IMG/VR virus record: IMGVR_UViG_3300042885_000276
Location: 1 to 61,870 of that record
Length of the DNA stretch: 61,870 nt
DNA from: a virus
Lineage: Duplodnaviria > Caudoviricetes
Direction: 5' to 3' (one strand)
Below are positions 1 to 61,870 of this stretch, piece by piece. The notes beneath the pieces were generated by a model. That model saw nothing but the letters and a program-made list of their open reading frames with translations, was not told the DNA's origin and did not search any database. The position numbers were made by a program, and so were the translations under genes. Numbering within the stretch: the first letter of the stretch is position 1; each line of letters opens with the position of its first letter.

Positions 1-252
1 GTGATTTTATCCAGCCACGCTGGCGTACCCGTCTCGCGCCTCCTGTGCGTACTCGTTAGCGTACCATTCCCAACATTCCGGCCCGCTCTCAGGCCAACAG
101 CGCCTTGCTTTTTCGTACTCACGTTCCCAGATTGCAGACGTGTCTAATCCTCTCGGCTCCACGCAGGTTTCAATCGTTTTCATGTTGCTTTTAGTTTGGT
201 TTCTCGGCGCATAATCGCGCCCTCTTGCCATCTTGGCGGCTGGCGATGCCGC
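1..252. repeat. Terminal direct repeat, left copy (circular or terminally redundant assembly overlap)
   Basis: 1-252 matches 61620-61870 except GTTCCCAG (~123-130) vs GTTCCAG (~61742-61748). Confidence 0.97.
7..183 (-). CDS. Small early-region hypothetical protein (MKTIETC...)
   Basis: ATG at 183 after an A/C-rich leader; co-oriented with the other early genes. Confidence 0.6.
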   Translation of the reverse strand: MKTIETCVEPRGLDTSAIWEREYEKARRCWPESGPECWEWYANEYAQEARDGYASVAG

Positions 253-275
253 AGAGATAGCAAGCGGGCGGGATT
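213..275 (-). other. Long imperfect intergenic hairpin (candidate RNase III-type processing site)
   Basis: Minus strand AATCcCGCCCgCTTGCTATCTctGCGGC-loop-GCCGCcaAGATGGCAAGaGGGCGcGATT, starting at the stop codon of 275-610. Confidence 0.6.
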
Positions 276-610
276 CAGGCTTTATCCGGCACGGACCATG
301 CTGGCGTTTGCTTTGAACCGCGAATCTCCGCCGCCTCGTTTGAACGCTCCGCAAGTCTGCGAACGTGGGCGCGGTGACTGTCCATTTCTTGACGGCTGGC
401 GAATCGAGATGGCAGAATCTCAAGATGCAAGCGAGCGGCCAGCGCGTACAAGTCTTCAAGGCTCATCTGCGCGATTGGTACGCGAAGCTCGCCAGCTTCA
501 TCTTTTCGGACCTCGCACGCGATTACGGCCCCACTAGGAAGCCGGTCAATTGCCAGTCCGATTATGCAGTTAACAGCACAGAATTCCTGCGCGTTGTGGT
601 TTAGAATCAT
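275..610 (-). CDS. Early hypothetical protein
   Basis: 111-aa ORF with ATG and A/C-rich leader, downstream of the hammerhead. Confidence 0.7.
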   Translation of the reverse strand: MILNHNAQEFCAVNCIIGLAIDRLPSGAVIACEVRKDEAGELRVPIAQMSLEDLYALAARLHLEILPSRFASRQEMDSHRAHVRRLAERSNEAAEIRGSKQTPAWSVPDKA

Positions 611-637
611 ATTCGTTTTCTGTTTTTGGTTATGGTT

Positions 638-698
638 TTAGCCTGTCTCATCAGTTTTCGGGAGGCTAACCCGAAAAGACCGCCGCAGCGGTTTCGAC
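638..698 (-). ncRNA. Type II hammerhead self-cleaving ribozyme with loop I pseudoknot
   Basis: Minus strand GUC-GAAA-CCGC(UGCG)GCGG-UC^-UUUUCGGG(UUAGCCU)CCCGAAAA-CUGAUGA-GAC-AGGCUAA: full catalytic core, stems I/II/III, GUC cleavage triplet; loop UUAGCCU pairs 7/7 with the 3' AGGCUAA. Confidence 0.95.
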
Positions 699-983
699 TC
701 ACATTCTTTCATTGCATACAAGGCGCGGAGAGTAGCCTTCCCCATCGTCATAAAATGACTGCAATTCAGCGTAAAGGTTCTCTAACTCGCCGGATTCATT
801 TTCAATCAGCATGTAGCCGCTTTCAAGAAAGCCAGCGTTACAAGCTCCGCCGAAAACGTAGCGATCTCCACGAATGAGCATCACTTCAAAATCGTGAAAC
901 TCTCCACGCTTGTCTTCTATTTCAAGGGTTCCCAGGTGCTCTGCTTTGCTTATGTCTGAAACTTGCCATTTTGATTCGTGCAT
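699..983 (-). CDS. Early acidic hypothetical protein (MHESKWQ...)
   Basis: ATG at 983 after an AAACCAAAAACAAAAAG leader; stop codon abuts the ribozyme. Confidence 0.7.
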   Translation of the reverse strand: MHESKWQVSDISKAEHLGTLEIEDKRGEFHDFEVMLIRGDRYVFGGACNAGFLESGYMLIENESGELENLYAELQSFYDDGEGYSPRLVCNERM

Positions 984-1015
984 AATGTGTCTTTTTGTTT
1001 TTGGTTTCTTGCTAG

Positions 1016-1070
1016 GGTTTGCGCCCTTTGCTCCCCTCGCTTGCGGCAAGGGGAGACAAGGAAGCAAATC
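1016..1070 (-). other. Long imperfect intergenic hairpin (candidate RNase III-type processing site)
   Basis: Minus strand TTTGC..CCTT..CTCCCCTTGC-loop-GCGAGGGGAG..AAGG..GCAAA directly after the stop of 1069-1353. Confidence 0.55.
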
Positions 1071-1353
1071 ACTTCGACTCTTGAACTGTATCTATGCCAG
1101 CCAGGAACGCACGCATTGCCGTTTCAAGTTCGCGTTTTGGAACGTGCCCATGGATTAGAGGCGTGGTTACTCCGCCGCCCTCGCTATGCATGCGATGGAG
1201 GCAATAGCCGCCATAAGCGCCAGATAAGTGGTAGTTTCCAACGTTAGCGCGGAAATTCCCGTTTTCGTCCTTCGTATACGGCTCCAAAGGTGAACCTGTG
1301 CGTTCGTTGATCCAACGGCATAGCGTTTCCAGCGTTTTAAGTGATGTTCTCAT
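1069..1353 (-). CDS. Early hypothetical protein (MRTSLKT...GNYHLSGAYGGYCL)
   Basis: ATG at 1353 with A/C-rich leader; protein-like composition. Confidence 0.75.
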   Translation of the reverse strand: MRTSLKTLETLCRWINERTGSPLEPYTKDENGNFRANVGNYHLSGAYGGYCLHRMHSEGGGVTTPLIHGHVPKRELETAMRAFLAGIDTVQESK

Positions 1354-1391
1354 GTTTTTGTCTTTCGTTTTTGTTTTTGGTTTCTTGATCC

Positions 1392-1541
1392 TCACAGCGC
1401 GGCGGCGGCGCATCCCGCTAGAATTCCCGCGACGGCAAAGAGCCAAAGCCATAGAAGGCACTGGCGATGGAACTGCTGGCGCTGGCGATGGCGTGAGGCT
1501 GCTAGGTAATGCAGGCGGAGGTTGTTCGGTTCTGTTTTCAT
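1392..1541 (-). CDS. Small membrane peptide (MKTEPNN...LLWLWLFAVAGILAGCAAAAL)
   Basis: Manually translated 49-aa ORF with A/C-rich leader and hydrophobic C-terminus. Confidence 0.55.
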   Translation of the reverse strand: MKTEPNNLRLHYLAASRHRQRQQFHRQCLLWLWLFAVAGILAGCAAAAL

Positions 1542-1570
1542 GTGTTTGGTTTTGGTTTATTCGTGGCGGT

Positions 1571-1621
1571 TTAGTCCACGCATGAACGCACCCATGAAGG
1601 ATGCGCTCAAGCGAGGGCTAA
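1571..1621 (-). other. Long imperfect intergenic hairpin (candidate RNase III-type processing site)
   Basis: Minus strand TTAG.CC.CGC.TGAGCGCATCC-TTCAT-GGGTGCGTTCA.GCG.GG.CTAA directly after the stop of 1622-2020. Confidence 0.6.
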
Positions 1622-2020
1622 TTATGATCCGAGGTAGAAACTGATCTGCCCATCATCGCCTTTGCTGAGATTTGAGGGAATCCGTCCCTCCATTGCCATT
1701 TCCTCGTACTCTTCCCAGTCGATCTCGTCTAACGAGTCAGCGCCTGCTTGACGAACATCACCAGCAACCCATTGAAGGAATAAAGCGTTCACTTCTTCCG
1801 CGCTCCAGGCTGCTATTTCTTCCCGTGTCCATCCGCCTGAGCTTCGCGCAAAGTCTCGCATTGCCTCCAGTTTATCTTCCGTATCGAGCAAAGGAGTTTT
1901 TTGGGCCTGCTCCTTTGATGCGTTCCAGGTGTTCCGGCCTGCGTTCTCTCCACCTTCCGCTTGAGAGTGCGAGAGGTCGAAACAATCCAATTCAAGTAGT
2001 GGCGTGATATCGATGTACAT
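1622..2020 (-). CDS. Early acidic hypothetical protein
   Basis: 132-aa ORF, ATG, A/C-rich leader. Confidence 0.8.
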   Translation of the reverse strand: MYIDITPLLELDCFDLSHSQAEGGENAGRNTWNASKEQAQKTPLLDTEDKLEAMRDFARSSGGWTREEIAAWSAEEVNALFLQWVAGDVRQAGADSLDEIDWEEYEEMAMEGRIPSNLSKGDDGQISFYLGS

Positions 2021-2040
2021 GTTGTTTTAGTGGTTTTAGG

Positions 2041-2142
2041 TTAGTGCCAGAGGATGATTGCGATTGAGATCAGAGCGATGGTTCCGAGTATCCAAGCCAA
2101 GAGCATGGCGAGCATTGCGTCTGGGGTGTCGTGTGGTGTCAT
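2041..2142 (-). CDS. Small single-TM peptide (MTPHDTPDAMLAMLLAWILGTIALISIAIILWH)
   Basis: Manually translated 33-aa ORF; first gene after the putative early promoter. Confidence 0.5.
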   Translation of the reverse strand: MTPHDTPDAMLAMLLAWILGTIALISIAIILWH

Positions 2143-2192
2143 ATTGCGTTGCGTTGCGTGTTTTGTTTTCGTTGGGTTATCCTAACACGCAT

Positions 2193-2235
2193 AGATTAAC
2201 AGAAAGCGGACAGTTAGCAAGCAGAAAAGCGGACA
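2193..2235 (-). promoter_or_regulatory. Putative early promoter with two AAAGCGGACA boxes
   Basis: Minus strand TTGCTA-N16-TAATCT (2220-2193); direct repeat AAAGCGGACA at 2203 and 2226. Confidence 0.5.
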
Positions 2236-2278
2236 CTTTGAAGAAATACTTGCGAAGTTAGGGCTTTAGCGGGATTAA

Positions 2279-2854
2279 ATGCCGATTATGGCGAACACTC
2301 CTGTAATTGATCCCGCAACCTGGGAAGCGTTAAAAGCTGCCAGCATTCGAGGCGTTCCAGATTCACAGCTTGCCGAGAGCTTTGGAGTTTGTGAGGCAAC
2401 GATCAGGATCAAACGATTCCGAGATGATGTGTGGAAAGCAGCGTTAACCAGTAAGCAGGAAAAGGCTACTGAAACGATAGGCAATGAAGAGAATGAAACG
2501 GGAATTGAAACGAAAGGCGAAAAAGTGGTAAATTTGCCAACTTCGCCACTTGCCAGCACGTCCACACTTGCGCAGAAAGTGGCTTCTACGGTGTCCGAGA
2601 ACATCTCACGACTAGGAGAGCAGAATCGTCTCCTAGCGCTTCAAATCGCAGGGAAAGGGCTAAAGCAAGCAAATGCTGCTCCGCCGGACGTGCAAAGCTG
2701 GCAAGATGTCAAAGCCCTCATGGACATTGTGGCTAAGGCCAGCGGGATGGATCAAGCCCAAGCCGTCCAAGTTAACGTGCTTAGCTCGCAGCCTATGGAT
2801 TTCTCCCCTCACTTTGAGCCGCTTGTTGAGACTGGAAACGTGGTTGAGGTGTAA
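2279..2854 (+). CDS. HTH protein, probable terminase small subunit
   Basis: N-terminal HTH (VPDSQLAESFGVCEATIRIKRFRDDW-like), helical middle, 'VQVNVL' beta tail typical of TerS. Confidence 0.5.
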   Translation: MPIMANTPVIDPATWEALKAASIRGVPDSQLAESFGVCEATIRIKRFRDDVWKAALTSKQEKATETIGNEENETGIETKGEKVVNLPTSPLASTSTLAQKVASTVSENISRLGEQNRLLALQIAGKGLKQANAAPPDVQSWQDVKALMDIVAKASGMDQAQAVQVNVLSSQPMDFSPHFEPLVETGNVVEV

Positions 2855-3250
2855 CTCACTGAGTATCAGTGATGTCCTACTTTGCATGCTCGGTGTTGTT
2901 TGTAGTTATATATTAACCCGGAATTTCTGGCCTGTTTTTTCTTTGATCCCGGCAGTGCATGGGTGGATGGACTGCTAGCTAGCGGCGGCGGTGGCTAGTA
3001 GCCAGGGTGGCGGGCGAGCGCGAGGGGTGGCAGTGAGGAGCGCAGACCACGGGTCGGGTGGCAGTGGGTAGGGCGGGGCGAGCGGCCCATGTTGTGCGTA
3101 TATTCACTCCCCTCATAAAATTCCCCCAAATAAATATCTTCTACCATTACCACCACCGGGTATGATTTATTTATTCACCCACCCCAGGGGTCTTTTCTGT
3201 AAAATCATCCTCAACAATTTCTCCCTCTAAATTATTTCTTATACCATTTG
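2851..3250. other. Non-coding region with a palindrome, G-rich strand-biased tract and AT-rich imperfect repeats (candidate packaging/terminus region)
   Basis: TCACTGA-GTA-TCAGTGA at 2856-2872; five G>=3 runs at 3051-3078; TATTCAC..TAAAAT..TACCATT motif series twice in 3101-3248. Confidence 0.4.
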
Positions 3251-3282
3251 ATTCCGTCCGTTTGTGTGTGATGTTTACCGCA

Positions 3283-4398
3283 GTGAACTACTACAATGAA
3301 TATGACAAAAAGACCGCCGCATGGCTGCGAGAACTCATCAAGGCTGGACTTATTCCAGATGGAGTTGTGGACGAGCGATCAATTACAGATGTGCGTTCAA
3401 GCGATCTCGCCGGATACACGCAGTGCCATTTCTTCGCCGGAATCGGAGGATGGAGCCTTGCTTTGCAACTCGCAGGATGGCCCTCAGATCGTCCTGTGTG
3501 GACCGGAAGCTGCCCATGCCAGCCATTCTCAACCGCAGGAAAAGGACTCGCTCAAGCCGATGAACGACATCTCTGGCCTGTGTTCTTTAATCTCATCAAG
3601 GAATGCCGACCTGAACATGTCTTTGGGGAGCAGGTTGCAAGCGCGATTGGCAAAGGTTGGCTCGATGGAATATCGGCAGACTTGGGCGAAGAAGGTTACG
3701 CCTGCGGGTCTGCCGTATTGGGCGCACACAGCGTCGGCAGTCCGCATATCAGACAAAGATTGTACTGGGTGGCCGACTCCAACAGTGGACGATTCCAGCA
3801 ATGTGACGAGGGAATCGGGAGCGTTCCAGAGCTTAACAAGAACAGCGCAGATGGCTGGATGGGCGACTCCAGTAGTGAACGACACAACGGGCAGCACTCA
3901 CTGCTACGGAAAGAAGAACCAAGACGGGACACGGGAGATATTCTACAAGCTGCCGGGTCATGCGAAGCTAGCGGGATGGGCAACGCCGAACGCCAACAAT
4001 ATGAACGACGGGGAGGGGCTGGAGACGTGGGATGCCCGCCAGATCAAGAACAAGGAGAAGCACGGCAACGGGAACGGAGCTGGGATGCCAATAGCGGTTC
4101 AGGTGAAAACGATCACGGGATGGCCGAGTCCAATGCACTTGGATGGACACATGGCTTCGACAGAAAGGACGACCAACGGGCAGAAACAGCTTCCGAATGT
4201 AGCGGCAATCTGTGGTCTGACTTCCAACTCGCCCACTGCCGAGACGGCAAAACCCGTCGCATCCCAACTGAACCCACATTTTTCCCGCTGGCTCATGGGG
4301 TTTCCGCTAGAGTGGTGCGACTGCGCGGTTACGGCAATGCAATCGTTCCCCAAATTGCGGCGGAGTTCGCCAAAGCATATTTAGAAATTTCCCAATGA
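3283..4398 (+). CDS. C5 cytosine DNA methyltransferase, alpha (catalytic) polypeptide
   Basis: Motifs [49 protein letters not shown]; motif IX absent from this frame; start uncertain (3262/3271/3283). Confidence 0.92.
3296..4384 (+). CDS. Overlapping +1-frame polypeptide, probable methyltransferase beta subunit (TRD-like repeats plus motif IX)
   Basis: 362-codon open frame nested in the MTase gene; carries [13 protein letters not shown] (motif IX-like, 4268-4306) and four GW-x-(T/S)-P repeats; real start may be internal (e.g. ATG 3665). Confidence 0.8.
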
Positions 4399-4871
4399 TT
4401 TCATCATTCCATCCCAACTTCAAAAACCTCACGGGTAAACGCTTTGGTCGCTGGACGGTTCTCTCCCATGTGCCAACGGGTAGAAAAGGATCTTCAACCT
4501 GGAGATGCCAGTGCGACTGTGGACGCATCAAGCAGAACGTGTTCTATACCGCTTTAACAACGGGCAAGTCTCTTTCCTGTGGATGCCTTAGAACCGATCT
4601 GCTGCGCGGTAAAGCAGTGGATGTGAAGCCGGAAAGCCCAACTGCTATTGAAGAGCCTATTGGCGATTTGGCTGAGCTTGAGGCGATGCTGGTTGATTCC
4701 AAGAAGCCTGTGGTATCTGAGGCTAAAAAACTCACCCTCAACGATCAACGTCTCTGGCGCTGTATAGCTCGTTGCCGGGTCAAAGGACTCACCTACAAGG
4801 GCCAGAAGCCAACGGATTTCTACGTCAAGCTGGCGATGAAGGATGAGCTTGCGATTTGGCTGAGAGGATAA
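4395..4871 (+). CDS. Protein with HNH/AP2-associated N-terminal Cys domain
   Basis: NLTGKRFGRWTV...WRCQCDCG...SCGCL; no HNH catalytic motif seen. Confidence 0.75.
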   Translation: MISSFHPNFKNLTGKRFGRWTVLSHVPTGRKGSSTWRCQCDCGRIKQNVFYTALTTGKSLSCGCLRTDLLRGKAVDVKPESPTAIEEPIGDLAELEAMLVDSKKPVVSEAKKLTLNDQRLWRCIARCRVKGLTYKGQKPTDFYVKLAMKDELAIWLRG

Positions 4872-4927
4872 ATATCTTATTGTATTTGTTGCATCGACAG
4901 AATCGGCGTGCGATGGTTGATGACGAT

Positions 4928-5266
4928 ATGAAACTAACAGAACAAGAAAAAAGAATCAAGCTGGCTAAGGCTGATGGGTGGGATGAGTCGCCGTCGGGCA
5001 AATGGAGTAATAACGGATTTATTTTGCCTGACCCTCTCAATCCACCCGACTACTTCAACGACCTCAACGCGGTGCATAAGTTGGAGCAACAAACATGGTC
5101 CAAGGAATGGAATCTGAGAGACGATTTTTGTGATCATTTGGCTTTAATCATTGACCCTGTGCATGGTTATAGAGGTCTTAAAGCTATAGATGCACTACAA
5201 GCAACCGCAGCACAACGCGCCGAAGCTCTCGGCCTAGCCCTCAAACTTTGGGAGGCATCGAAATGA
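4928..5266 (+). CDS. Phage hypothetical protein (ABA-sandwich-like)
   Basis: IKLAKADGW...PDYFNDLNAVH...ATAAQRAEAL pattern. Confidence 0.65.
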   Translation: MKLTEQEKRIKLAKADGWDESPSGKWSNNGFILPDPLNPPDYFNDLNAVHKLEQQTWSKEWNLRDDFCDHLALIIDPVHGYRGLKAIDALQATAAQRAEALGLALKLWEASK

Positions 5267-5378
5267 TTGCAAGAATCGCCATCTTAATGTTTGGAATTAC
5301 TATCGCTTCTACGACGTGCATGAACCGCTACTGCGAAATGAAAGAATGGATTCACACTCACTCAGATAAATACAGACC

Positions 5379-6011
5379 ATGAGAAACATAAACCTCCCCA
5401 AAACAAAAATATACATTCGCTGTGACGCCTTCGGTGGTCCAGAAAACGAATTTGAACTAGCTTGGCTCGTCTCTGTCAGAGCTATGCGTAACCGTCCATT
5501 CTGCTTCCAGGCATGGGTGGAGAAATACGCTGCATGCTTCGATAAGATTCCGCCGCAGTGCGTCTATTGGTATGAGCCGGAAGATGATCACAAGCCTCTT
5601 CCGCTACATAAAGTTCAGATGTGGGAATGCCTGTCTGGTTCCATTGAGCTTTGGCGCAAGGATCAGTTAAGCGACGTGCCAGTTTTGGTTAACCTTGGCA
5701 AAGGTAATCCACCGATAGGAGGCCACTACTGGTTCACCATCGACCACCTGCCAGAAGGGCAATCATCTGGCCTCCTGGACGTAGGTGACTCAGAGTTGCT
5801 TGAAGAGCATAAGGAGGGCAATGTCATCAAGCTCAGTAATGGGCAGATCGCGATCTATCCGAACAACCGCATTAAGTGGATGCCAGTTTCACTGACCGGC
5901 AAAGACGCAGCCGCAACTATTCCGCCCTGGAGCGTTGCAACAAATAGCCAATGGGACGAGTGGTGGTCTGACTCAGACGAAATCCTTGGCGATGCTAAAT
6001 GGGCGTATTGA
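5379..6011 (+). CDS. Conserved-type phage hypothetical protein
   Basis: 210-aa ORF with QMWEC, YWFTID, EHK, NGQIAIYPNNRI motifs; function unknown. Confidence 0.8.
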   Translation: MRNINLPKTKIYIRCDAFGGPENEFELAWLVSVRAMRNRPFCFQAWVEKYAACFDKIPPQCVYWYEPEDDHKPLPLHKVQMWECLSGSIELWRKDQLSDVPVLVNLGKGNPPIGGHYWFTIDHLPEGQSSGLLDVGDSELLEEHKEGNVIKLSNGQIAIYPNNRIKWMPVSLTGKDAAATIPPWSVATNSQWDEWWSDSDEILGDAKWAY

Positions 6012-42117: not shown

Positions 42118-45100
42118 ATGGCTACTTGGCACGAGATTACACGCGATCCAGAATATCAAGAACTTTCCGAACAGGGAAAGGCTTTGGTTAAGCAGGGATT
42201 TTTTGAACGAGAAATATCCTCTGATCCTGAATTTAAAGCGTTCTCGCCACAGACACAAAAGGCTGTTTTTGATGACTTTTGGCAAACTCCAGACGATTCG
42301 GGTCAAGGAATAGTTACCTCCACACTCGGAAGTGCTGCCCGTGGATTCGGTGAAATTGTTCCAGGCACATTGGAAGGTGTTGGCGCTCTGACCGGCATCA
42401 CACCTATCAGCGATCTTGGCGAATCTGCTCGCGAAGGGCTGGAATACATTGCGCCAGTCAATCCAATTTACGAGCAAGGCATTCCTGCCAAAGTGGCAAA
42501 TGTGGCTGGTAATGTGGCTAGCATCATCGGCACAAGCGGCGTTGGTGGACTTGCTGGTAAAGCTCTAGGTGCTGAGCGTGCTGCCGCTGCTGGTTCTGCT
42601 GCTGCTAGGCAAGCTCTCACAAATCAAGCCATTCAAGCTGGTGCTAAATCTGCCCTATACGGCACAGGGTTTGCTCAAGGCGCTGCTGCTAAAGCTGCCG
42701 AAAATGAGCGTCTTGGCATCACTGGCGCTGAAGGGTATTTGAATCTTCTTGGCGGTGGCATATCTGAGCTTGCCCCAGAAATGCTTCCATTCGGCTCTGC
42801 GCTTGAAACGTCTGCCGCCCGTCGCTTGCTTGGAGGAGTTGATGATGCTGCTGGTAGAGTAATTCCAGGTATCCGCATGAGCGCAGCGCAAGAAGCTGCC
42901 GAAGGTGGTTCCACGCAAGTTCTCAGTAATCTCTCAACTCAGCTTACTGCTCCCACTGGCGTTGAAGCTCCAGGTTTGTTTGAGGGCGCTGGTGAAGCTG
43001 CTCTTTGGGAGGGCGTTGGTGGCGCAATGTTTGGCGCGATCAACAAACTTGGCCGAACACCTCCAGAGAGGCAGACTGACATCCAAAAAGCGTTCGTTGC
43101 GGAAGATAATGTGGATGCTGTTGATAAAGTTCCAGATCAGACAGACGACGAAAAGCTCGTCAACATGAACGCTGGCGGCACCACAGTGGTTGATCCACAG
43201 GGGAAAACAGCGGTTATTGCGCCACCAGCGCCAAAGACTCCAAGCCAAGTCATCGCTGAAAATCTGGCAACGGCTGCTGAAAATACATCCAACGATGCCA
43301 GTAAAGCTGTTGCAGCGGCGAGGGCTGTGACGCAACAAGTTACCACAACAAATGAGCCGATCACTCAAGAAGCCTTACCGCCAGAGCCGGAGATTCGACA
43401 GGACATGCAGGAATCACGGCAGTTGCCCTTGGTGCCAGAGCAACCGCTTGCACAAGAACCACAAGCGCCCGTTGAGTTGCCAGTTCCAACTGTTGAGCCT
43501 ACCGTAGAAACGCCAATCCAAAATCCAGCAGAAATTCATCGAAATCGCAATGCAGAATCTGAATCGTATATAGTGAGGGATGCCGAAGGGTTTGCCGACC
43601 GAAAAGCAACCAGGGAGGTGGTTGAGGTGGCTGCTAAAGCTGCGGGAATGACTGTGGATGAATGGGCGGCAGATCAGGCAGCCAAAAACATCAAGGCTAA
43701 TAAAGATTTCTTCGATGCCCTGAACGATGGGGACACTTTGGAGTGGATCGACAACAACGGGAGAAAAGGAACTGGACGCGTAGAAATCGGATTGGATGGA
43801 GAGAAAACGGTGCGCAATACCACCGAAGGTTCTCCCTCAGAAGACTACCAGTACACAAATCGGTCTGGCATTTTCGCCCAAGTTGCGGATTCCTTGAAGA
43901 TCACACCCAAAAGAAAAGAAGCCGCCCCCGCAACCGAAGCCCCCGCCCCCACTGCCGAAACTCTTGGTGTCACAGCGCCACCGGCCCCGACGCTGGAAAC
44001 CCCCGAAGGCGCGGCACGCAACGCCGACATGCTCCGTCAAGCCCAAGCCCGTTTGGCTGGCACCGAGCAAGGCCCGCGCATCGGCTTTCTCCAACCTTCA
44101 GAAGTTGCTCCCGCAACCGAAGCCCCACCAATCACTCCTACCAAGGAGACGCCGACGCCCGCTACCGAAGGCACGGTCATGCCGGGAGGCAGCGCCATGG
44201 AGCGGGATGTGACTAAGCCGGAGCAGATGACGCCGGAGGAACACTTGAACGCTTGGAATCAATTAAACATTGATGCTCAAAAAGCGAGGGAAAAGGCAAA
44301 CGCTGCTAAAGCGAAATTGCTTCCTAAAAATCCTGCGTCGCAAATTAGGCAAATGGAGAAAAACGCCAAACTAGAGCAAGAAGCAATTACTCTAGAAAAT
44401 TTGAGAGATGAATTTCCTCCAACTCCTAGTTTTGCAATTGAGAATGCGGTAAAAGAAGGAAAGCCATTCTCGGTAGATCTCCATAAAGCATCAGGATATG
44501 CCTATATTCCCTCTGGCTACACCCGCCAAGGCGACCTCTACGTATTCCAACCGGGGGTAACTGGCGAATTAGTTCAGGTAGCGCCTTCTGCTGCACAGGC
44601 CGTGACGAAGCCAGCTACAGTCAAATCTACAGAGTTGCGAGTTGGTGATGAAGTGTCGTTCAAGGGAAATACATACCGTGTAAAGAGCAAGTTACTTGAT
44701 GGCAGAGTTCGAGCCGAGTTCACAAATCCAGAAGGCATCGCCAAACTTCCAGCGGGTTCTGTTAACATCACAACCCTACCTCGTAACGTCAATCTCACAC
44801 GCATTGAAAAACCATCTCCCCAAACCACAACGGTAGCCACACCAACAGAAACCGCCGCTCCCTTGGCTAAGGAAGCGGCGGTAGCCAGTGTTGTTCAACA
44901 ACCAGCAGAGGGGTCGATCCCTGCTGTTGAGCAAGAATCTGCTATAACTCCCATAGAGTCAAATGAAAAAGCGGACATTGCAGATGCCGCAATGGCATTC
45001 TTGGAAGAGGATTTGACCGAGAGCAAAAGGCAATGGAGTCCAGAAAAGATCGCTGCTGCAAAAGCCTACTTCGCTAGCGGTGGCAAAGACATGGATGTGC

Positions 45101-48100
45101 TTCGTGCTGCATTTCCCAAACTCGTTGGCTCTCGTCCGATTGTTCAAGCCTATCTCAAGGCTGATAAGGAAGCGTCAGAAGCTCAAGCTAAGCGTGATGC
45201 AGCCGATGCTAAGCTCGCCAAAGAAATCGAGCGTGACGAGAAGGAGCAAGCCAAAGCAGAAGAGGCACAAAGGAAACGTGAAGAGCTAAACATTAAGACG
45301 CTCAACTCGCTCATTCAGAAAACGCGCACGAACGTCGTTCAAGGCACCGTCAAGCCAACCGATGCCAATCAAGCTGTCGCGATTCTCAACAGTTCAGGCG
45401 AGATTCCAAATGTGCTATTCACCTGGATTGGCACCTCAAAGGACTTCCTTGCTGATCCTGCGAATCGCGTTCGTTATCCTGAGACTTGGAAAGCCATCAG
45501 TAGTAATCCGAACATTGAGGGAGCGTCTGATAATGGACAGCCGATTGTCTTCACGGACAACATTGGCGTATCCGATCTTGACCGTAAGCTAGCCAATCTT
45601 CAAGGCACTACGCCAGAAGTGGCGGCAGTTCGTCGCGTCATCCTTCATGAGAACATCCATAAAGGCATATTCTTCTTATCAAAGAAGGAGAAGATGCAGA
45701 TCTTCTCGTTATTGCGCCGGATGTACTCTCCAGAGGAGCTTGATTCGCTTGCTAAGTCCTATAGCAAATACTCTGACTGGCGCACGAATCGAGATAACTA
45801 TTTCAGCTTATTAGAAGAAGCGATGATTCGTGACTTCGACTCAATGGCGGAAATTCCGCGTGATGGCATTTGGGCAGAGTTCATGCAATTTCTGCGTGGC
45901 ATCTGGCAGAAGATCACTGGCAAGACGAGCGAGCCTACGCTAAAGGACTACAAGGATGTTTTCCGCTTGATTCGCAATAGCCTGAAGAACTCGGAGAAGG
46001 CTAATGCTGACATGCTGGTGAATGGTGGTGGCGTGCGGATTGGCATTGCATCCAAAGTCGAATACGATTCCCCAAACGATGCCGCATTCAACAGTGGCGC
46101 TGAAGTAGCTCGCAACACTGATTACGACGAACGCGACAAGGAAGTGCGTTCTACTATTCGTGCAGCATACGATATTGCTCCGAAGACAAATGGCCCATCG
46201 GTGCCGCTAGACGAGCTTTTCAGCATCGTGCAGCAGTCGATGCCTGATCTGACGGAAACCGAGTTCAGCCGTATCTTGCAAGGGCTGTATGAGGACAGTG
46301 GGGCACTGTTGATTGAAGGTGAGGTTGCTCCATCCTATACTTCAGAAGAAGAGGCTAGACATGCCGAACTTGAGGCCAAGTTCAACGCTGGCACCATCAC
46401 GCCAGAAGATACGGCAGAGGCGCAGGCTTTGGTGGATGAACGGGCGAAGGCGGCGGGGTATGATGGCGGTATAGTGTGGCATGGAGATCGTAATGAGGAG
46501 TTTGTAGATAATTACTCTCCATTTACCGAGCCTAAGATTCCATTTTTTACAACACCATCAAAAAAATCCGCTAGTTGGTATGGAAATCCTCGCTCATATT
46601 ACAGCAAAAAAAGTAAAGTTGCTGGAATATCTGATATTTTCAATGCGGCTAACGCGCTTGGTATTACCAAAGATAAATCCGATCCATATTATGAATTTTG
46701 GCCTGAAATAAAAAAATATTCAGAATACGATGGGGTTAACGATAATGATCTTGTTTATGTTCCGTCTATCCGAGAAGAGTTGGTAAAACGTGGATTCACA
46801 AGAGTCCGAGTTTTGGATCAGTTAGAGAATCAAGAAATAACTGCTGATATTTTTATTGATTCACCCTCTCAAATCAAATCCGCAGACCCATTCACAGGAG
46901 TCCCACTCAACCAGCGTTTCGATACTGGTAACGATATTCGCGGCAACATCAACACCTTCACCACCGAAGGCGAACGCGCTGGATCTGTCATCGTTATGCC
47001 ACCGTCTGGATTCCAGACAAGAGCGATGGCGTCAATGATTGATCCTAAAGACGCTGCAACCAAACAGTTCGCGAAGAATATTAAGGACATCAACAGTGGC
47101 ACAGCTAAGGCTGCATTCGACGGCGTGCAGTTTGTTGACTTCGAGCCAGTTGATCACATTGTTAAGCCAAACAAGTCATACGAAAAGATAGCCATTGACT
47201 ATGTAGATGGACTTCTTGGTGAGGGTAAATCCATTGAGGATATTGCCACATCTATTATGACTCCTATGTTCTTCGATAGCATTGGTATCAGCAATGATGT
47301 CAAGGCTCGTCAGGCTCTCACATCAGAAGTTCTTCGTCGCGTCACCGATCTAAACGGCCTATCTAATACTCGTCTAGCATCCAAGCGATTACAGAAGTTG
47401 GAAGACTTAATCAGTGCATTCTGGCAAGGTCTTGGAACTGAGAGCGGTGGAAACCAAGGCCAGCGTGCTTTCATTATCGGAAGCCCTCGTTATTCATGGA
47501 TGTTTTTGAAGGACTCCGTGAAGAAGGAGATGAAGGAACGCCGAAACAACATTCTCACTGTTCAGTTTGGCAATAATAACGCTACCAGCTTCACTCAGAA
47601 CTCGTATGAGAATGCGGATAAGGCTTCCACCATGTCTGCGGATGAGATTGCCAGTGACATTGAAGACTTCAAGATTGATCAAGATTTGCTCGATGGAGAG
47701 GCAACACTAACTGGCAAACTTGCGAAGATGTATGAAGAGTTGAAGGACTTACTTCGTGAGAATGGAATCTTGGCTCGACTTGACGCTCAAGAAAACATCA
47801 CGGCAAAAGCATCTATTTCACCAGCGCGGAGAGAGGAACTTGCTGCTTTGAGCAAGGATGAGCGTGCAAAATTGCGCGACAAAAACAATAAGCGCATTGA
47901 GCAAATCCTGAACACTCTACTTGGAAAAGAAGAGGATGCCGATACGACAGAGAAAAAGACCGTGCGTAAGAAGCGTGAGAAGATGGTCGATGCTGTGAAG
48001 AAGCGCGTTGAGCAGGGTAAACCTATTGAGCCTACTGACTACGTTCCAATCATCACCGAGAATCCACAACGCGATGAGATTATTGATGATGTTTCTAATG

Positions 48101-51100
48101 CTTTGCTACAAGCGGCAAAGAAGCGCGGAGTCAAGCCTTCTCAAAAAACCGCATTGGCAGACTTAGTTGCCAGTATCAAATCTCTGCTCAAGAGGAATAT
48201 AAAAGGTGAAGATTTAAAAGCTGACGAAGCTCCATTGGGTCAATTGCTGGCGAGGACATATCTCGACAACCTCACGGCAACTGAAGCTAAGTTGTTTACT
48301 GAAAGCTGGAATGATGGACGTAAAAAGGTTCGTGCTATGCTTACAGAGATGGGTGTTGAAGGCACTCAACTTGAGGCTGAACTGAATGCCATCATGCCAG
48401 CAACTCCAACGATTGCATACAATCCATCGGCAGTTCGCAAAGCAATCACACGCGCATTGCGTGAAGCCGGTCTTGATGCCAATGACCTTTTGGCTAACAC
48501 GCAGTCAGTTAAATCCGAAATTCTCAAAGTTTGGGATAATGCCGCTGTTGATGCTGGCTTAACACCTTCTGTTTGGCAAGAAGGGCGCAAACTTGCTGAG
48601 AAGTCTATTGATGAGTTTGTTATTGAGCGCAAGGCATCCAAGGAAAAGGCAAAGAAAATTGCCAAAGTGGTATCTGAGCAGGCTAACAATCCAGTTTCAC
48701 TAGCTGATTTCAGCAACTCACTGTCTCAATACAAACTCAATGATGGCAAGGTTAAAGAGCTTTTCGACAAAGCTAAAGTTCTTGCGAATAAGAAGGTTCA
48801 AATTGCCTACGACATGGCTGTTCGAGTCCTTCTTGTATCAGAGAATAATCTAGCTCAAAGCGCATTCTTTAATTCCGCCACCAAGCCAGACACCATCGTT
48901 AAGGCTTTCCGTCAGCAAGTGAGTGATCCAATGAGTCGTCAGGATTTCAAGGATCGCATGGAAGCAATGAAAGTCAGTGGAGAATTGGCCGATAGGCTTT
49001 TCGACAGGGCTGCTCGTGAAAAAGACAATGCACAGTGGAAGCGTGCTCAAGACATGCTTGAAGGGCCAAATGCTCTGCGTAACATTCTTCGCGAGATCAA
49101 TCGCGCACGTCCAGGTAATCAAGCGCCATTGTCTGAGCAGATTCCTTGGCGTCAGCTTCTTTCGCAAAGCTCAAAGACAGTTGAAGAATACCGCCAGCGT
49201 ATCCTTGACGCAATCTCTGCCAACGAATCACTCAAGAACGCAACGCCAGAGCAAAAGGCACGTCTCGCAGAACTATTCACTGAAGCATGGGAAACCAAGC
49301 GTAAACGCATTCTCGACAGCATGCAGGAGCGATTGATCCGTGAGCAAGAGGCAAAAGGTAATCTCAGCAAAAAAGCTGCTAAAGCTCTTCAGGAAAATCG
49401 CATGCGTATAGTTGAGGACATCAACCTTGGCATTTTCGACAACGATGAAATCGCGAAGATCATAGCTGAGAAATTCGGCATCAAGTCCGAGTTCACTGAT
49501 GAAGAGCGCCAGAAAATTGAGTCGCTGATTGCAATCTTGCAGGATGAAAAACTCAACCGCGTAAAGCGCAACAAAGCAGCTTACGAGTTGCTGGAAACGC
49601 TCAGCGCACAGACTGGTATTTCAATTGCTAAGTTGTTGGCAAACTTCTGGGTGTCTAGCGTGCTTTCTGGGATGAACACGGTGTTCTCTATCGGCATGTC
49701 TGTCTTTAGTGGTATGGGCGAGCTCACCACTGCCCTGTCTCGCATCTTTTCTGCTGCATTCTCAAATCCAAAACAGCTTTCGTCTGAAGTTGCAGCGGCA
49801 TTTAAGACTCTGGCAAGAGTAATATCTGCCGTCCCTCGTCAAGCCAACAGAGCTTGGCAATACCTCGTCACAGGAGATCAAGCATTCCTTGATCCATCTA
49901 TGAACGATGCGCTCAAAAACATGGATTACGCATCCATCGGTAAGAATAACCAGCTTGCTGAGCAGATGGCGAAGTCTGATAAGATTCTCGAAAAGAGCAT
50001 GGGTCTTTTCATGCGAACAGTTAGCCGACTACTTACCGCTCTCGATTTGTTTAATAGTGGACTCACCAAAGAAGGCTCGCTTTCTATTGTGTTCCGCCAG
50101 CTTGATCTTGATCCTGTTAAAATCCAAATGCTTGAGAAGAAGTCTGACTTGAAGGCATATAAGGATCAGGTGATTCGAGACTATTTCAACAATGTGCAGC
50201 CAAAAACTCTCAACGAAAAAGCACTCGTTGAATCCTACGCCATGGCTGAAATGATGAAGGCTCTGGATGAAATTGGCAACGTGTCTGAAAACGCTGACCA
50301 AATGGCAATGCAGGGTGCGATGACGCTCGATCCTTCTGGCCTTGGTGGATATGGCTACCGTTTCGTTAAATCAATGATGAAGAGTGCTGAATCTGGCACC
50401 GATAAATTGTTGGAACGAAACCTTCGCAAATGGGATGAGGCAGTCGGTGTAGATGAGAAAGCGGAAGCTGGCGTGAAGTTGGTTTTGTCTTATATCTTCC
50501 AATTCGCTGCCTACAACGCTGCAAACTTGGTAGGTGTCCGATTTGCTCGCTTCGCTGGTAACAAGTTCAACCAGAGTCTTAGCTTCTTGCCTTTAATTGG
50601 CGCTTTGAGGCTGTATGAGGCCGAGTTTGATTCTGACCGCATTCGTGGCAAGGAGGCGTTCACAGATATGATCAAGCGTAACCAACTCACGGGCGTAATT
50701 GCTGCTGTGATTGGATACTATGTTCTTAAAGCTATCGCAGAAGAACCGGATGATGAGAAGCGAGGCGCATTCATCAATGGTGGTTGGAGCAACTTGACCC
50801 CAGAAAAGAAACAGCAAAAGATAGCTTCTGGACAAAAAGAATACACGCTTGGCTTTGGGGATACGGTGATCAATTATGGCAACTGGCCTGGATCTGGCAT
50901 CCTAGCAGCCATCGGTGGATTATCAGATTTGATCCGCTTCTCGCCTGACCAATGGAATGATAAGACTGTTGCCAACAAACTACTGTCTGCAACCACGTCT
51001 GGCGTGTTTTCAGCTATGGAAGTTCCAGCCCTGTCTCAGTTCCAAGAACTGTTTGGTAGTAGCTTGTCCAGCAAAGATCCGAATGAGCAAAAGCTCACAA

Positions 51101-51630
51101 AATTTGCTCGCGTCATAGGAAACTATGTGGGCGGTTTCGTTCCTCGTATCCTCAAAGATATTGATTATATATCCGATCCAAACTTCAGGAAATACGAAAC
51201 GCTGTGGGAGAAAACAGCCTCGCACATCCCTGTTTATCGTCGTTACGAAGGCAAGGAGTACTACGACATCTTGGGCCAGCAAATCCAACGCAATGTGTAT
51301 CCTGGAAGCCGCGAGTTCATGGTGAAGCCAACTGATCCAGCCTATAAGGTTCTCGGCGCTCTCAATTCCCGTGGAATCTGGCTGACTCCTGCTAATGCTG
51401 AACACCGCATGGTTGGCAAGGGCGCTCGTCGTCGCTCCCTCACGCAGGAAGAAGCTGACAACTACAGCCTTGAAACCGGCAAAGGCTATAAGCAGATGCT
51501 TCTGCGATACGGTCAGCGTGCGCTCCAGATGCCCACAGAACGCGCCAAAGCATTCTTGTTGGACAAAGCTGACGAAGTGCGCGACAGGGCGCTCAAGAAG
51601 GTCTATAGGGGCTATCAACCTGCAACGTGA
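42118..51630 (+). CDS. Giant ejection/polyvalent protein with zincin HExxH and ADP-ribosyltransferase-like (ART-PolyVal) domains
   Basis: 3170 aa; G/A-rich N-terminus; ILHENIH at ~45640; AKAAGY..VWHG..FFT..A..YG..QIKSADP..RFD at ~46440-46930. Confidence 0.8.
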   Translation: MATWHEITRDPEYQELSEQGKALVKQGFFEREISSDPEFKAFSPQTQKAVFDDFWQTPDDSGQGIVTSTLGSAARGFGEIVPGTLEGVGALTGITPISDLGESAREGLEYIAPVNPIYEQGIPAKVANVAGNVASIIGTSGVGGLAGKALGAERAAAAGSAAARQALTNQAIQAGAKSALYGTGFAQGAAAKAAENERLGITGAEGYLNLLGGGISELAPEMLPFGSALETSAARRLLGGVDDAAGRVIPGIRMSAAQEAAEGGSTQVLSNLSTQLTAPTGVEAPGLFEGAGEAALWEGVGGAMFGAINKLGRTPPERQTDIQKAFVAEDNVDAVDKVPDQTDDEKLVNMNAGGTTVVDPQGKTAVIAPPAPKTPSQVIAENLATAAENTSNDASKAVAAARAVTQQVTTTNEPITQEALPPEPEIRQDMQESRQLPLVPEQPLAQEPQAPVELPVPTVEPTVETPIQNPAEIHRNRNAESESYIVRDAEGFADRKATREVVEVAAKAAGMTVDEWAADQAAKNIKANKDFFDALNDGDTLEWIDNNGRKGTGRVEIGLDGEKTVRNTTEGSPSEDYQYTNRSGIFAQVADSLKITPKRKEAAPATEAPAPTAETLGVTAPPAPTLETPEGAARNADMLRQAQARLAGTEQGPRIGFLQPSEVAPATEAPPITPTKETPTPATEGTVMPGGSAMERDVTKPEQMTPEEHLNAWNQLNIDAQKAREKANAAKAKLLPKNPASQIRQMEKNAKLEQEAITLENLRDEFPPTPSFAIENAVKEGKPFSVDLHKASGYAYIPSGYTRQGDLYVFQPGVTGELVQVAPSAAQAVTKPATVKSTELRVGDEVSFKGNTYRVKSKLLDGRVRAEFTNPEGIAKLPAGSVNITTLPRNVNLTRIEKPSPQTTTVATPTETAAPLAKEAAVASVVQQPAEGSIPAVEQESAITPIESNEKADIADAAMAFLEEDLTESKRQWSPEKIAAAKAYFASGGKDMDVLRAAFPKLVGSRPIVQAYLKADKEASEAQAKRDAADAKLAKEIERDEKEQAKAEEAQRKREELNIKTLNSLIQKTRTNVVQGTVKPTDANQAVAILNSSGEIPNVLFTWIGTSKDFLADPANRVRYPETWKAISSNPNIEGASDNGQPIVFTDNIGVSDLDRKLANLQGTTPEVAAVRRVILHENIHKGIFFLSKKEKMQIFSLLRRMYSPEELDSLAKSYSKYSDWRTNRDNYFSLLEEAMIRDFDSMAEIPRDGIWAEFMQFLRGIWQKITGKTSEPTLKDYKDVFRLIRNSLKNSEKANADMLVNGGGVRIGIASKVEYDSPNDAAFNSGAEVARNTDYDERDKEVRSTIRAAYDIAPKTNGPSVPLDELFSIVQQSMPDLTETEFSRILQGLYEDSGALLIEGEVAPSYTSEEEARHAELEAKFNAGTITPEDTAEAQALVDERAKAAGYDGGIVWHGDRNEEFVDNYSPFTEPKIPFFTTPSKKSASWYGNPRSYYSKKSKVAGISDIFNAANALGITKDKSDPYYEFWPEIKKYSEYDGVNDNDLVYVPSIREELVKRGFTRVRVLDQLENQEITADIFIDSPSQIKSADPFTGVPLNQRFDTGNDIRGNINTFTTEGERAGSVIVMPPSGFQTRAMASMIDPKDAATKQFAKNIKDINSGTAKAAFDGVQFVDFEPVDHIVKPNKSYEKIAIDYVDGLLGEGKSIEDIATSIMTPMFFDSIGISNDVKARQALTSEVLRRVTDLNGLSNTRLASKRLQKLEDLISAFWQGLGTESGGNQGQRAFIIGSPRYSWMFLKDSVKKEMKERRNNILTVQFGNNNATSFTQNSYENADKASTMSADEIASDIEDFKIDQDLLDGEATLTGKLAKMYEELKDLLRENGILARLDAQENITAKASISPARREELAALSKDERAKLRDKNNKRIEQILNTLLGKEEDADTTEKKTVRKKREKMVDAVKKRVEQGKPIEPTDYVPIITENPQRDEIIDDVSNALLQAAKKRGVKPSQKTALADLVASIKSLLKRNIKGEDLKADEAPLGQLLARTYLDNLTATEAKLFTESWNDGRKKVRAMLTEMGVEGTQLEAELNAIMPATPTIAYNPSAVRKAITRALREAGLDANDLLANTQSVKSEILKVWDNAAVDAGLTPSVWQEGRKLAEKSIDEFVIERKASKEKAKKIAKVVSEQANNPVSLADFSNSLSQYKLNDGKVKELFDKAKVLANKKVQIAYDMAVRVLLVSENNLAQSAFFNSATKPDTIVKAFRQQVSDPMSRQDFKDRMEAMKVSGELADRLFDRAAREKDNAQWKRAQDMLEGPNALRNILREINRARPGNQAPLSEQIPWRQLLSQSSKTVEEYRQRILDAISANESLKNATPEQKARLAELFTEAWETKRKRILDSMQERLIREQEAKGNLSKKAAKALQENRMRIVEDINLGIFDNDEIAKIIAEKFGIKSEFTDEERQKIESLIAILQDEKLNRVKRNKAAYELLETLSAQTGISIAKLLANFWVSSVLSGMNTVFSIGMSVFSGMGELTTALSRIFSAAFSNPKQLSSEVAAAFKTLARVISAVPRQANRAWQYLVTGDQAFLDPSMNDALKNMDYASIGKNNQLAEQMAKSDKILEKSMGLFMRTVSRLLTALDLFNSGLTKEGSLSIVFRQLDLDPVKIQMLEKKSDLKAYKDQVIRDYFNNVQPKTLNEKALVESYAMAEMMKALDEIGNVSENADQMAMQGAMTLDPSGLGGYGYRFVKSMMKSAESGTDKLLERNLRKWDEAVGVDEKAEAGVKLVLSYIFQFAAYNAANLVGVRFARFAGNKFNQSLSFLPLIGALRLYEAEFDSDRIRGKEAFTDMIKRNQLTGVIAAVIGYYVLKAIAEEPDDEKRGAFINGGWSNLTPEKKQQKIASGQKEYTLGFGDTVINYGNWPGSGILAAIGGLSDLIRFSPDQWNDKTVANKLLSATTSGVFSAMEVPALSQFQELFGSSLSSKDPNEQKLTKFARVIGNYVGGFVPRILKDIDYISDPNFRKYETLWEKTASHIPVYRRYEGKEYYDILGQQIQRNVYPGSREFMVKPTDPAYKVLGALNSRGIWLTPANAEHRMVGKGARRRSLTQEEADNYSLETGKGYKQMLLRYGQRALQMPTERAKAFLLDKADEVRDRALKKVYRGYQPAT

Positions 51631-61619: not shown

Positions 61620-61870
61620 GTGATTTTATCCAGCCACGCTGGCGTACCCGTCTCGCGCCTCCTGTGCGTACTCGTTAGCGTACCATTCCCAACATTCCGG
61701 CCCGCTCTCAGGCCAACAGCGCCTTGCTTTTTCGTACTCACGTTCCAGATTGCAGACGTGTCTAATCCTCTCGGCTCCACGCAGGTTTCAATCGTTTTCA
61801 TGTTGCTTTTAGTTTGGTTTCTCGGCGCATAATCGCGCCCTCTTGCCATCTTGGCGGCTGGCGATGCCGC
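61620..61870. repeat. Terminal direct repeat, right copy
   Basis: Matches 1-252 with one C missing. Confidence 0.97.

Follow-up and report, generated by a model that had tools for sequence, protein, structure and literature searches.

A predicted type II hammerhead ribozyme occupies an intercistronic slot that sister phages fill with other RNA elements

What is a hammerhead ribozyme doing between two small genes of a phage? The question was raised by a ~61.6-kb lake-water phage (IMG/VR record rated 100% complete), in which a complete type II hammerhead had been predicted from the letters of the DNA. We analyzed the whole record as a single stretch of 61,870 nucleotides, hereafter termed the window; the 24 sequencing runs that carry the locus are all lake-water metagenome DNA. 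The type II consensus comprises a pseudoknot of at least 4 bp between loop I and a tail located just 3′ of stem II, and the text that defines it also reports that hammerheads often flank prophage genes and that polycistronic constructs of 2 kb undergo cleavage in vitro (Perreault et al., 2011; PMC3088659). The kind of ribozyme, its place in phage gene blocks and the hypothesis that it processes long or polycistronic phage transcripts were thus all published there in 2011. Cleavage in vivo is described for three type II copies of D. vulgaris (Olzog et al., 2021; PMC8782182), and in the relevant passage of a 2019 review (PMC6765202) the function of genomic hammerheads in bacteria and phages is still called open.

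The core, stem I (8 bp), the open stem II (3 bp), stem III and the 7-bp pseudoknot were all listed in the original prediction, and every detail of this anatomy matches the sequence (Table 1). The elements follow each other in the order stem II 5′ strand, GAAA, stem III hairpin, C17, stem I hairpin, CUGAUGA and stem II 3′ strand. Loops cap stems I and III, and both the 5′ and 3′ ends lie in stem II, as in the type II permutation. A692 pairs with U679, and the cleavage triplet GUC (680-678, N-U-H type) is invariant in 14 of 14 copies. The hammerhead consensus puts the predicted cut exactly where it was first proposed. The placement between the genes was also read correctly: the upstream TGA occupies 701-699, at the end of the gene 983..699, the ribozyme 5′ end is the next base, and the spacer 637-611 leads to the ATG at 610. 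When the region was folded in context, stems I and III were retained and the leader was predicted to be open. The fold energy is ordinary when compared with shuffles (z = −1.24 for 65 nt and z = −0.48 for 221 nt).

Table 1. Coordinates of the RNA elements and flanking genes (window positions unless a locus is named).
Feature	Position	Strand	Basis or remark
Complete pseudoknotted type II hammerhead ribozyme, 61 nt	638..698	(-)	Sequence reading, Rfam and own model
Stem II, 3 bp	GUC 698-696 with GAC 647-645	(-)	Open helix, the type II hallmark
Core GAAA (G12 A13 A14 A15.1)	695-692	(-)	Invariant in 14/14 copies
Stem III hairpin ACCGC/GCGGU, 5 bp including A15.1-U16.1, loop UGCG	692-679	(-)	
Predicted cleavage site, 3′ of C17 (base 678)	678/677	(-)	Position from hammerhead consensus; new 5′-OH end would be U677
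Stem I hairpin, 8 bp	655..677 (677-670 with 662-655)	(-)	Sequence reading; compensatory changes in 5/8 pairs
Loop I UUAGCCU	669-663	(-)	
Core CUGAUGA (C3 to A9)	654-648	(-)	Among 14 copies only N7 varies (U, C or A)
3′ tail AGGCUAA	644-638	(-)	Perfect 7-bp complement of loop I (pseudoknot)
Leader, 27 nt, A/C-rich, without Shine-Dalgarno-like run	611..637	(-)	Predicted unpaired; between tail and ATG at 610
Gene D, 111 aa	275..610	(-)	Downstream of ribozyme; 68 invariant columns in 13 sequences
Gene Y, 94 aa	699..983	(-)	Upstream of ribozyme; its TGA abuts the ribozyme
B1, long irregular hairpin (1068-1018) plus conserved tail	1011..1068	(-)	Its first base directly follows the TGA of gene 1353..1069
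B2, putative H-type pseudoknot	L008:2937-2979; equivalents in L006, L014, L020-L022, L145, L148-L155		~20 nt before the ATG of D
L003 hammerhead	L003:6042-6107		11-bp stem III, no obvious pseudoknot; an ATG with a purine-rich run follows after ~50 nt
L158 hammerhead	L158:1037-1098		One gene upstream of D, before another gene; leader similar to that of L162

An Rfam Hammerhead_II search had been proposed as a check on the prediction. RF02276 matched at 637-699 with 38.5 bits, 1.5 bits above the gathering cut-off of 37 (E 2.7e-4, whole window against all families), and it was the sole Rfam family to reach its gathering score in the window. The E-value mode returned one further row, STAXI, at a sub-threshold E of 0.43, and a search of the RF02276 type matched 0 of 14 control genomes. 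With our own covariance model (R1) the window copy scored 96 bits. A short motif with a near-threshold score may be a chance resemblance. Against this stand the E-value over the whole window and, as described below, conservation with covariation in phages whose D proteins are ~60-96% identical; chance is already contradicted, and what probability it retains is negligible. Of nine hammerhead-bearing loci submitted to Rfam only four passed the RF02276 cut-off and five were missed, and none of the copies in L143, L144, L158 and L162 passes it. Since most copies of the relatives fall below the cut-off, the Rfam type II model is insensitive for this lineage and overlooks clear family members.

Relatives were sought with both flanking proteins, which gave 3 + 18 viral loci and 21 metagenome loci (some contigs are present under two names), and the occupant of the slot was read locus by locus from the 150-180 nt upstream of gene D. 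A hammerhead was found in 9 loci of the viral set of 18 and another element in the other 9. The metagenome set (21 loci) held 4 hammerheads, 14 other elements, 2 loci with nothing and 1 without upstream sequence. A covariance model built on the first 10 copies and run against 32 sources recovered 14 copies, the divergent ones being those of L143, L162, L158 and L003. A wider search of viral contigs for this hammerhead lineage returned 25 pattern matches, made up of 9 known contigs and 16 unrelated sequences.

The core bases are unchanged in the 14 copies except for N7, a position that is free in the consensus. A MAFFT alignment of the divergent hammerheads lost the register of stem III, and a model-based alignment (A5) was used instead. 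In that alignment, which is fitted to the model and therefore favours pairing, 98.9% of cells are paired, compared with 36-51% when the partners are slid by 1-3 columns. Compensatory changes on both sides were observed in 8 of 16 nested pairs (3 of 5 in stem III and 5 in stem I). The covariation score was reached by 0 of 500 shuffles and the number of covarying pairs by 1 of 500, with covariation drawn from few lineages, perhaps four or five events. Stem II shows a single G-C to G-U change (partner GAU in L015, L016 and L017). The pseudoknot also covaries: the window type UAGCC/GGCUA is replaced by UGCUC/GAGCA in L162 and L158, with three internal pairs compensatory. The stem I region of L003 is 17 nt long, and this copy was left out of the pseudoknot and placement counts; in the 13 parsed copies the pseudoknot measures 7 bp in 8, 6 bp in 3 and 5 bp in 2. 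We take conservation and covariation, both read from aligned copies, as good but not overwhelming evidence for a ribozyme.

The 13 parsed copies obey a common placement rule. Each begins 0-3 nt past the stop codon of the gene before it (in L143 one base, the first G, is shared with the stop), and the following ATG lies 18-27 nt beyond its 3′ end. Conservation of the block sets in exactly at the ribozyme 5′ end, behind at least four different upstream genes. A gapped descriptor with the same core and stem II, run over bacterial and archaeal genomes, matched 76 stretches, where by our own estimate about 3 are expected by chance. In 81 distinct bacterial copies the median gap is 5 nt from the stop codon to the ribozyme and 21 nt from the ribozyme to the next ORF start, and neither gap exceeds 60 nt in 49 of the 81 copies on the sense strand, compared with 7 of 81 in the antisense control. 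Stem I of the bacterial copies is mostly 6-7 bp, and a pseudoknot of ≥5 bp is present in 58 of 81, vs. about 25% when the tails are swapped between copies. Many copies of the same hammerhead design occur in genomes of the methanotrophic gill symbiont of Bathymodiolus japonicus (L167-L168, L179, L189, L192-L193, L209, L234-L236) and of the B. platifrons symbiont (L177, L230, L232); these include arrays of 2-3 hammerheads, ~250-480 nt apart, on one contig.

The RF02276 hammerheads, as described in PMC3088659, resemble the window copy in their core, open stem II, capped stems I and III, pseudoknot and intergenic site in phage or prophage blocks. The window copy differs in lying at the long end of the range for stem I and the pseudoknot (lengths found in 8 and 6 of the 81 bacterial copies, respectively), with a stem II of 3 bp and a score just over the cut-off. 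Lengthening such stems can slow cleavage, as noted in PMC3088659, and long stems with a marginal Rfam score are what a non-cleaving structural RNA or a decaying relic might display, its hammerhead-like fold being kept for, e.g., protein binding. We regard this reading as very improbable, because all 14 copies keep the catalytic-core bases and differ at N7 and in stems, loops and flanks, the pattern expected under selection for catalysis. The preferred reading is that the element is a genuine self-cleaving hammerhead that processes a leftward polycistronic mRNA, to which we assign a probability of roughly 70%.

The genes on either side offer few clues. Gene D matched nothing in Pfam or PHROG, its best hit in a PDB profile search had an E of 0.7, and Foldseek with its AlphaFold model (pLDDT 72.8) against PDB returned nothing at E ≤ 0.001 (best 0.032). 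Gene Y likewise lacks a Pfam or PHROG match and has only 3 related loci in viral contigs. The ribozyme lies on the sense strand within a run of small co-oriented minus-strand genes (~2141 to 7), and no terminator-like site was found on the minus strand of positions 1-2600. The first 252 nt of the window are repeated at 61620-61870 with 99.6% identity, in a record rated ‘linear’, and in G001, a relative with direct terminal repeats at its ends, the sequence of the window end runs straight into that of the window start. The repeat and this junction imply that the record is circularly permuted; judging by them, it is a circular or terminally redundant assembly, permuted when compared with relatives that have direct terminal repeats. 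By continuity with G001, the leftward run extends to genes of recombination and replication: RecT, exonuclease, resolvase, replication initiator and DnaB. Such a co-oriented run fits the ‘early operon’ of the original prediction, the early timing of expression being inferred.

Sigma-70-like sites in the region (3 found) were not above shuffles (mean 1.9). A weak one inside gene Y (826 to 798) has 9 of 12 consensus matches; if it were a real promoter, some transcripts would start ~100 nt upstream of the ribozyme. A promoter candidate picked by eye near 2215-2185 has 7 of 12 matches, was absent from the scan and was dropped. The leaders of the minus-strand genes at 2141, 2020, 1541, 1353, 983, 610 and 183 are all A/C-rich (AACCAAAAAC type) without a Shine-Dalgarno-like purine run, and this suggests a host or an initiation mode that relies on open leaders. 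As for the host, 25 pattern matches to protein D in 185,579 species genomes yielded no confirmed relative, the window holds no tRNA gene, and the bacterial hammerhead scan hit diverse taxa and gave no pointer. A phage database megablast with window 1-6000 returned only short methylase pieces. Elsewhere in the window, a single ORF of 3,170 aa (42118-51630, plus strand) has no PHROG match at E ≤ 1e-5, and most of the large plus-strand ORFs are likewise without a family.

Across the phage group the slot upstream of D holds the ribozyme, or a long hairpin (B1) followed by an H-type pseudoknot (B2), or nothing, and the flanks are homologous. The exchange is clearest when L016 is compared with L008. 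Their homology (85-87%) stops at L016:2916 and resumes at 2983, the hammerhead being 2922-2982; the boundaries thus fall 5 nt before the ribozyme and 1 nt after it, and L008 carries a 108-nt B1+B2 unit instead. In L011 a leader, another gene and the hammerhead stand in place of B2 alone. Two complete genomes are of the hammerhead type, with one copy each, and two are of the B type, with none at E ≤ 0.01. Since two complete sister genomes lack a hammerhead, it is dispensable as such.

In the window itself, B1 is located one gene upstream of the ribozyme slot, and its fold (−30.6 kcal/mol, z = −3.8) is predicted to contain ~20 pairs. Among relatives the lower stem of B1 is conserved in sequence and the tip covaries. 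When B1 was sought beyond the phage group, 80 of the 94 pattern matches were examined, and the paired 5′ strand was present in 5, all from this phage group. Based on its predicted fold, B1 may be a processing site for a double-strand RNase of the RNase III type. RNase III processing hairpins lie between the early genes of phage T7. B1 and the long hairpin of more distant relatives recall them in that both are predicted irregular hairpins of ~20 bp that directly follow stop codons in an early-type operon; the parallel concerns the B1 module, not the hammerhead. In those relatives (L150-L155, L157, L160, L161) a different long hairpin, with the closing stem GUGAC/GUCAC, lies ~100-50 nt upstream of D; it stands right after the stop codon, replaces B1 and is followed by B2, so that the architecture is the same with another sequence.

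The B2 hairpin occurs with at least five different stem sequences, each copy having been folded on its own. In all 12 folded copies the loop carries UGCCC and GGGCA follows 7-9 nt downstream, and neither motif varies. With no change in any of the 5 pairs, covariation does not prove the pseudoknot pairing. In sister phages B2 is followed by the same kind of A/C-rich leader. A permissive Rfam scan of L008:2840-3010, which spans B1 and B2, gave 13 rows at E ≤ 10 and no ribozyme family; the best row, CRISPR-DR10, reached 19.9 bits against a cut-off of 39. B1 and B2 are outside all Rfam families. Another intergenic stretch of the window that looks structured (1545-1620, minus strand; two hairpins by eye) separates gene 2020..1622 from a 49-aa ORF (1541..1392); its likeness to B2 is confined to the ends (UAGCC... 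and ...GGACUAAACCG).

How would cleavage act at this site? RNA would be transcribed through the site as part of the leftward polycistronic mRNA, stems I and III would fold locally, and the pseudoknot between loop I and the tail would dock stem I against the 3-bp stem II. The stop codon of gene Y abuts stem II, and a ribosome terminating there would sit on the 5′ portion of the ribozyme and might hold back its folding. Self-cleavage 3′ of C678 would then separate gene Y from gene D. The upstream product would be closed at its 3′ end by the stem III hairpin, from which a single C bearing a 2′,3′-cyclic phosphate overhangs. The first base of the downstream product would carry the 5′-OH and would already be paired in stem I; an H-type pseudoknot and then the open A/C-rich leader would come after it. 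Most likely, the mRNA of D and of the recombination and replication genes would in this way gain a 5′ end that is defined, nuclease-resistant and independent of context, made without host RNases.

RNase E/J and the 3′ exonucleases are end-dependent RNases, and structured ends resist them. After the predicted cut, the first base of the product would already belong to stem I, and the leader is modelled as open. Resistance to end-dependent decay is proposed because of this general knowledge and because of two accounts of engineered or ribozyme-made ends: 5′-OH ends made by ribozymes are described as slowing end-dependent decay (bioRxiv 10.1101/2020.07.22.216051), and insulation by RiboJ is described as raising transcript about 2-fold (PMC6206723). 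Protection of the end or insulation is therefore a plausible benefit.

B2 bears on the same issue. In the predicted 3′ cleavage product of the ribozyme, a hairpin of 7-8 bp with its loop is followed by a 10-nt linker, and the loop pairs with the tail over 5-7 bp; the modelled B2 appears to mimic this product in shape and position, sharing its topology and its distance from the start codon. This parallel fits the structured, protected 5′ end of the original prediction and does not prove it. The idea of such an end thereby gains indirect support, and the original interpretation as a whole is supported in part. Cleavage may alternatively serve differential decay, in which one half of the transcript, e.g., the upstream small genes, is lost faster and the ratio of early proteins is set in this way. 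The cut would uncouple Y from D, and processing into transcripts of differing stability or translation efficiency is among the suggestions for bacterial hammerheads and twisters in PMC6765202. On what is generally known of RNases, however, helices at both new termini would argue for protection rather than exposure, and the B2 parallel points to a structured 5′ end that is kept; we hold differential decay to be improbable.

A further alternative overlaps the protected-end explanation and differs in the selective benefit, which would be modularity: the ribozyme would be a portable insulator at a hot spot of gene shuffling, where it cuts off variable upstream RNA and renders expression of D independent of the inserted gene, stabilization being secondary. 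The same ribozyme-leader-D unit stands behind at least four different upstream contexts, and recombination boundaries coincide with the ribozyme ends. Between B1 and the ribozyme, the inserted gene is one in the window/L002 and another in L005/L011/L012/L013/L143, in L158 the ribozyme and a similar leader precede another gene, and RiboJ is described as being used for exactly such a purpose (PMC6206723). Against this, the gene order is the same in sister phages whose slot holds the non-catalytic B2, or is empty (in L158/L159, directly upstream of D), and the leaders are all alike in the phage group, so that movement of a unit is inseparable from a common style. We consider this reading unlikely, though better placed than differential decay.

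More tentatively, and with odds that we put below even, the hammerhead and B1+B2 may be functionally interchangeable modules that make mRNA ends: B1 would be cut by a host double-strand RNase and B2 would cap the 5′ end of the D message, while the ribozyme would do both alone, independently of host enzymes. A bolder variant, in which B1+B2 is itself an unrecognized self-cleaving RNA, is less likely.

Comparison with known systems places the self-cleaving ribozyme, as preferred here, among several partial parallels. HHphage of the haloviruses HF1 and HF2, as described in PMC3088659, lies 13 nt upstream of the start of an early gene, and a mapped 5′ end falls within 3 nt of its cleavage site. 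It is a core variant of an archaeal virus, whereas the window copy has the canonical core and a distance of 27 nt. The prophage arrays of PMC3088659 (the A. tumefaciens ardA locus, C. scindens and A. caulinodans) and the D. vulgaris copies of PMC8782182 are alike in being on the sense strand, intercistronic and beside small phage genes. They are reported there to cleave in vitro or in vivo, whereas cleavage of the window copy is predicted. The arrays described often hold two or three hammerheads per block flanking a gene, whereas this phage group has a single copy per genome. RiboJ, according to PMC6206723, works alike in that upstream RNA is removed and a hairpin is left at the new 5′ end before the translation start, and transcript and protein rise. 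It is an engineered plant satellite-RNA ribozyme with an added hairpin and bears no family relationship, whereas the window copy would retain its own stem I and pseudoknot.

What is new here is the natural cassette swap and the previously undescribed elements B1 and B2. We found no paper on such a swap; the literature was not queried on that point, and we make no claim of its absence from print.

These data suggest that (i) the window copy itself is nothing new in kind; and (ii) the phage group offers a natural comparison for asking what intercistronic hammerheads are for. Since the same slot holds the ribozyme, B1+B2 or nothing between homologous flanks, the hypothesis of stabilization or insulation is directly testable with swapped cassettes. 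If the interchangeable-module proposal is true, the phage group would be a natural experiment, in which intercistronic type II hammerheads make pseudoknot-capped 5′ ends and hairpin-capped 3′ ends, and B2 would represent an undescribed class of 5′-leader pseudoknot.
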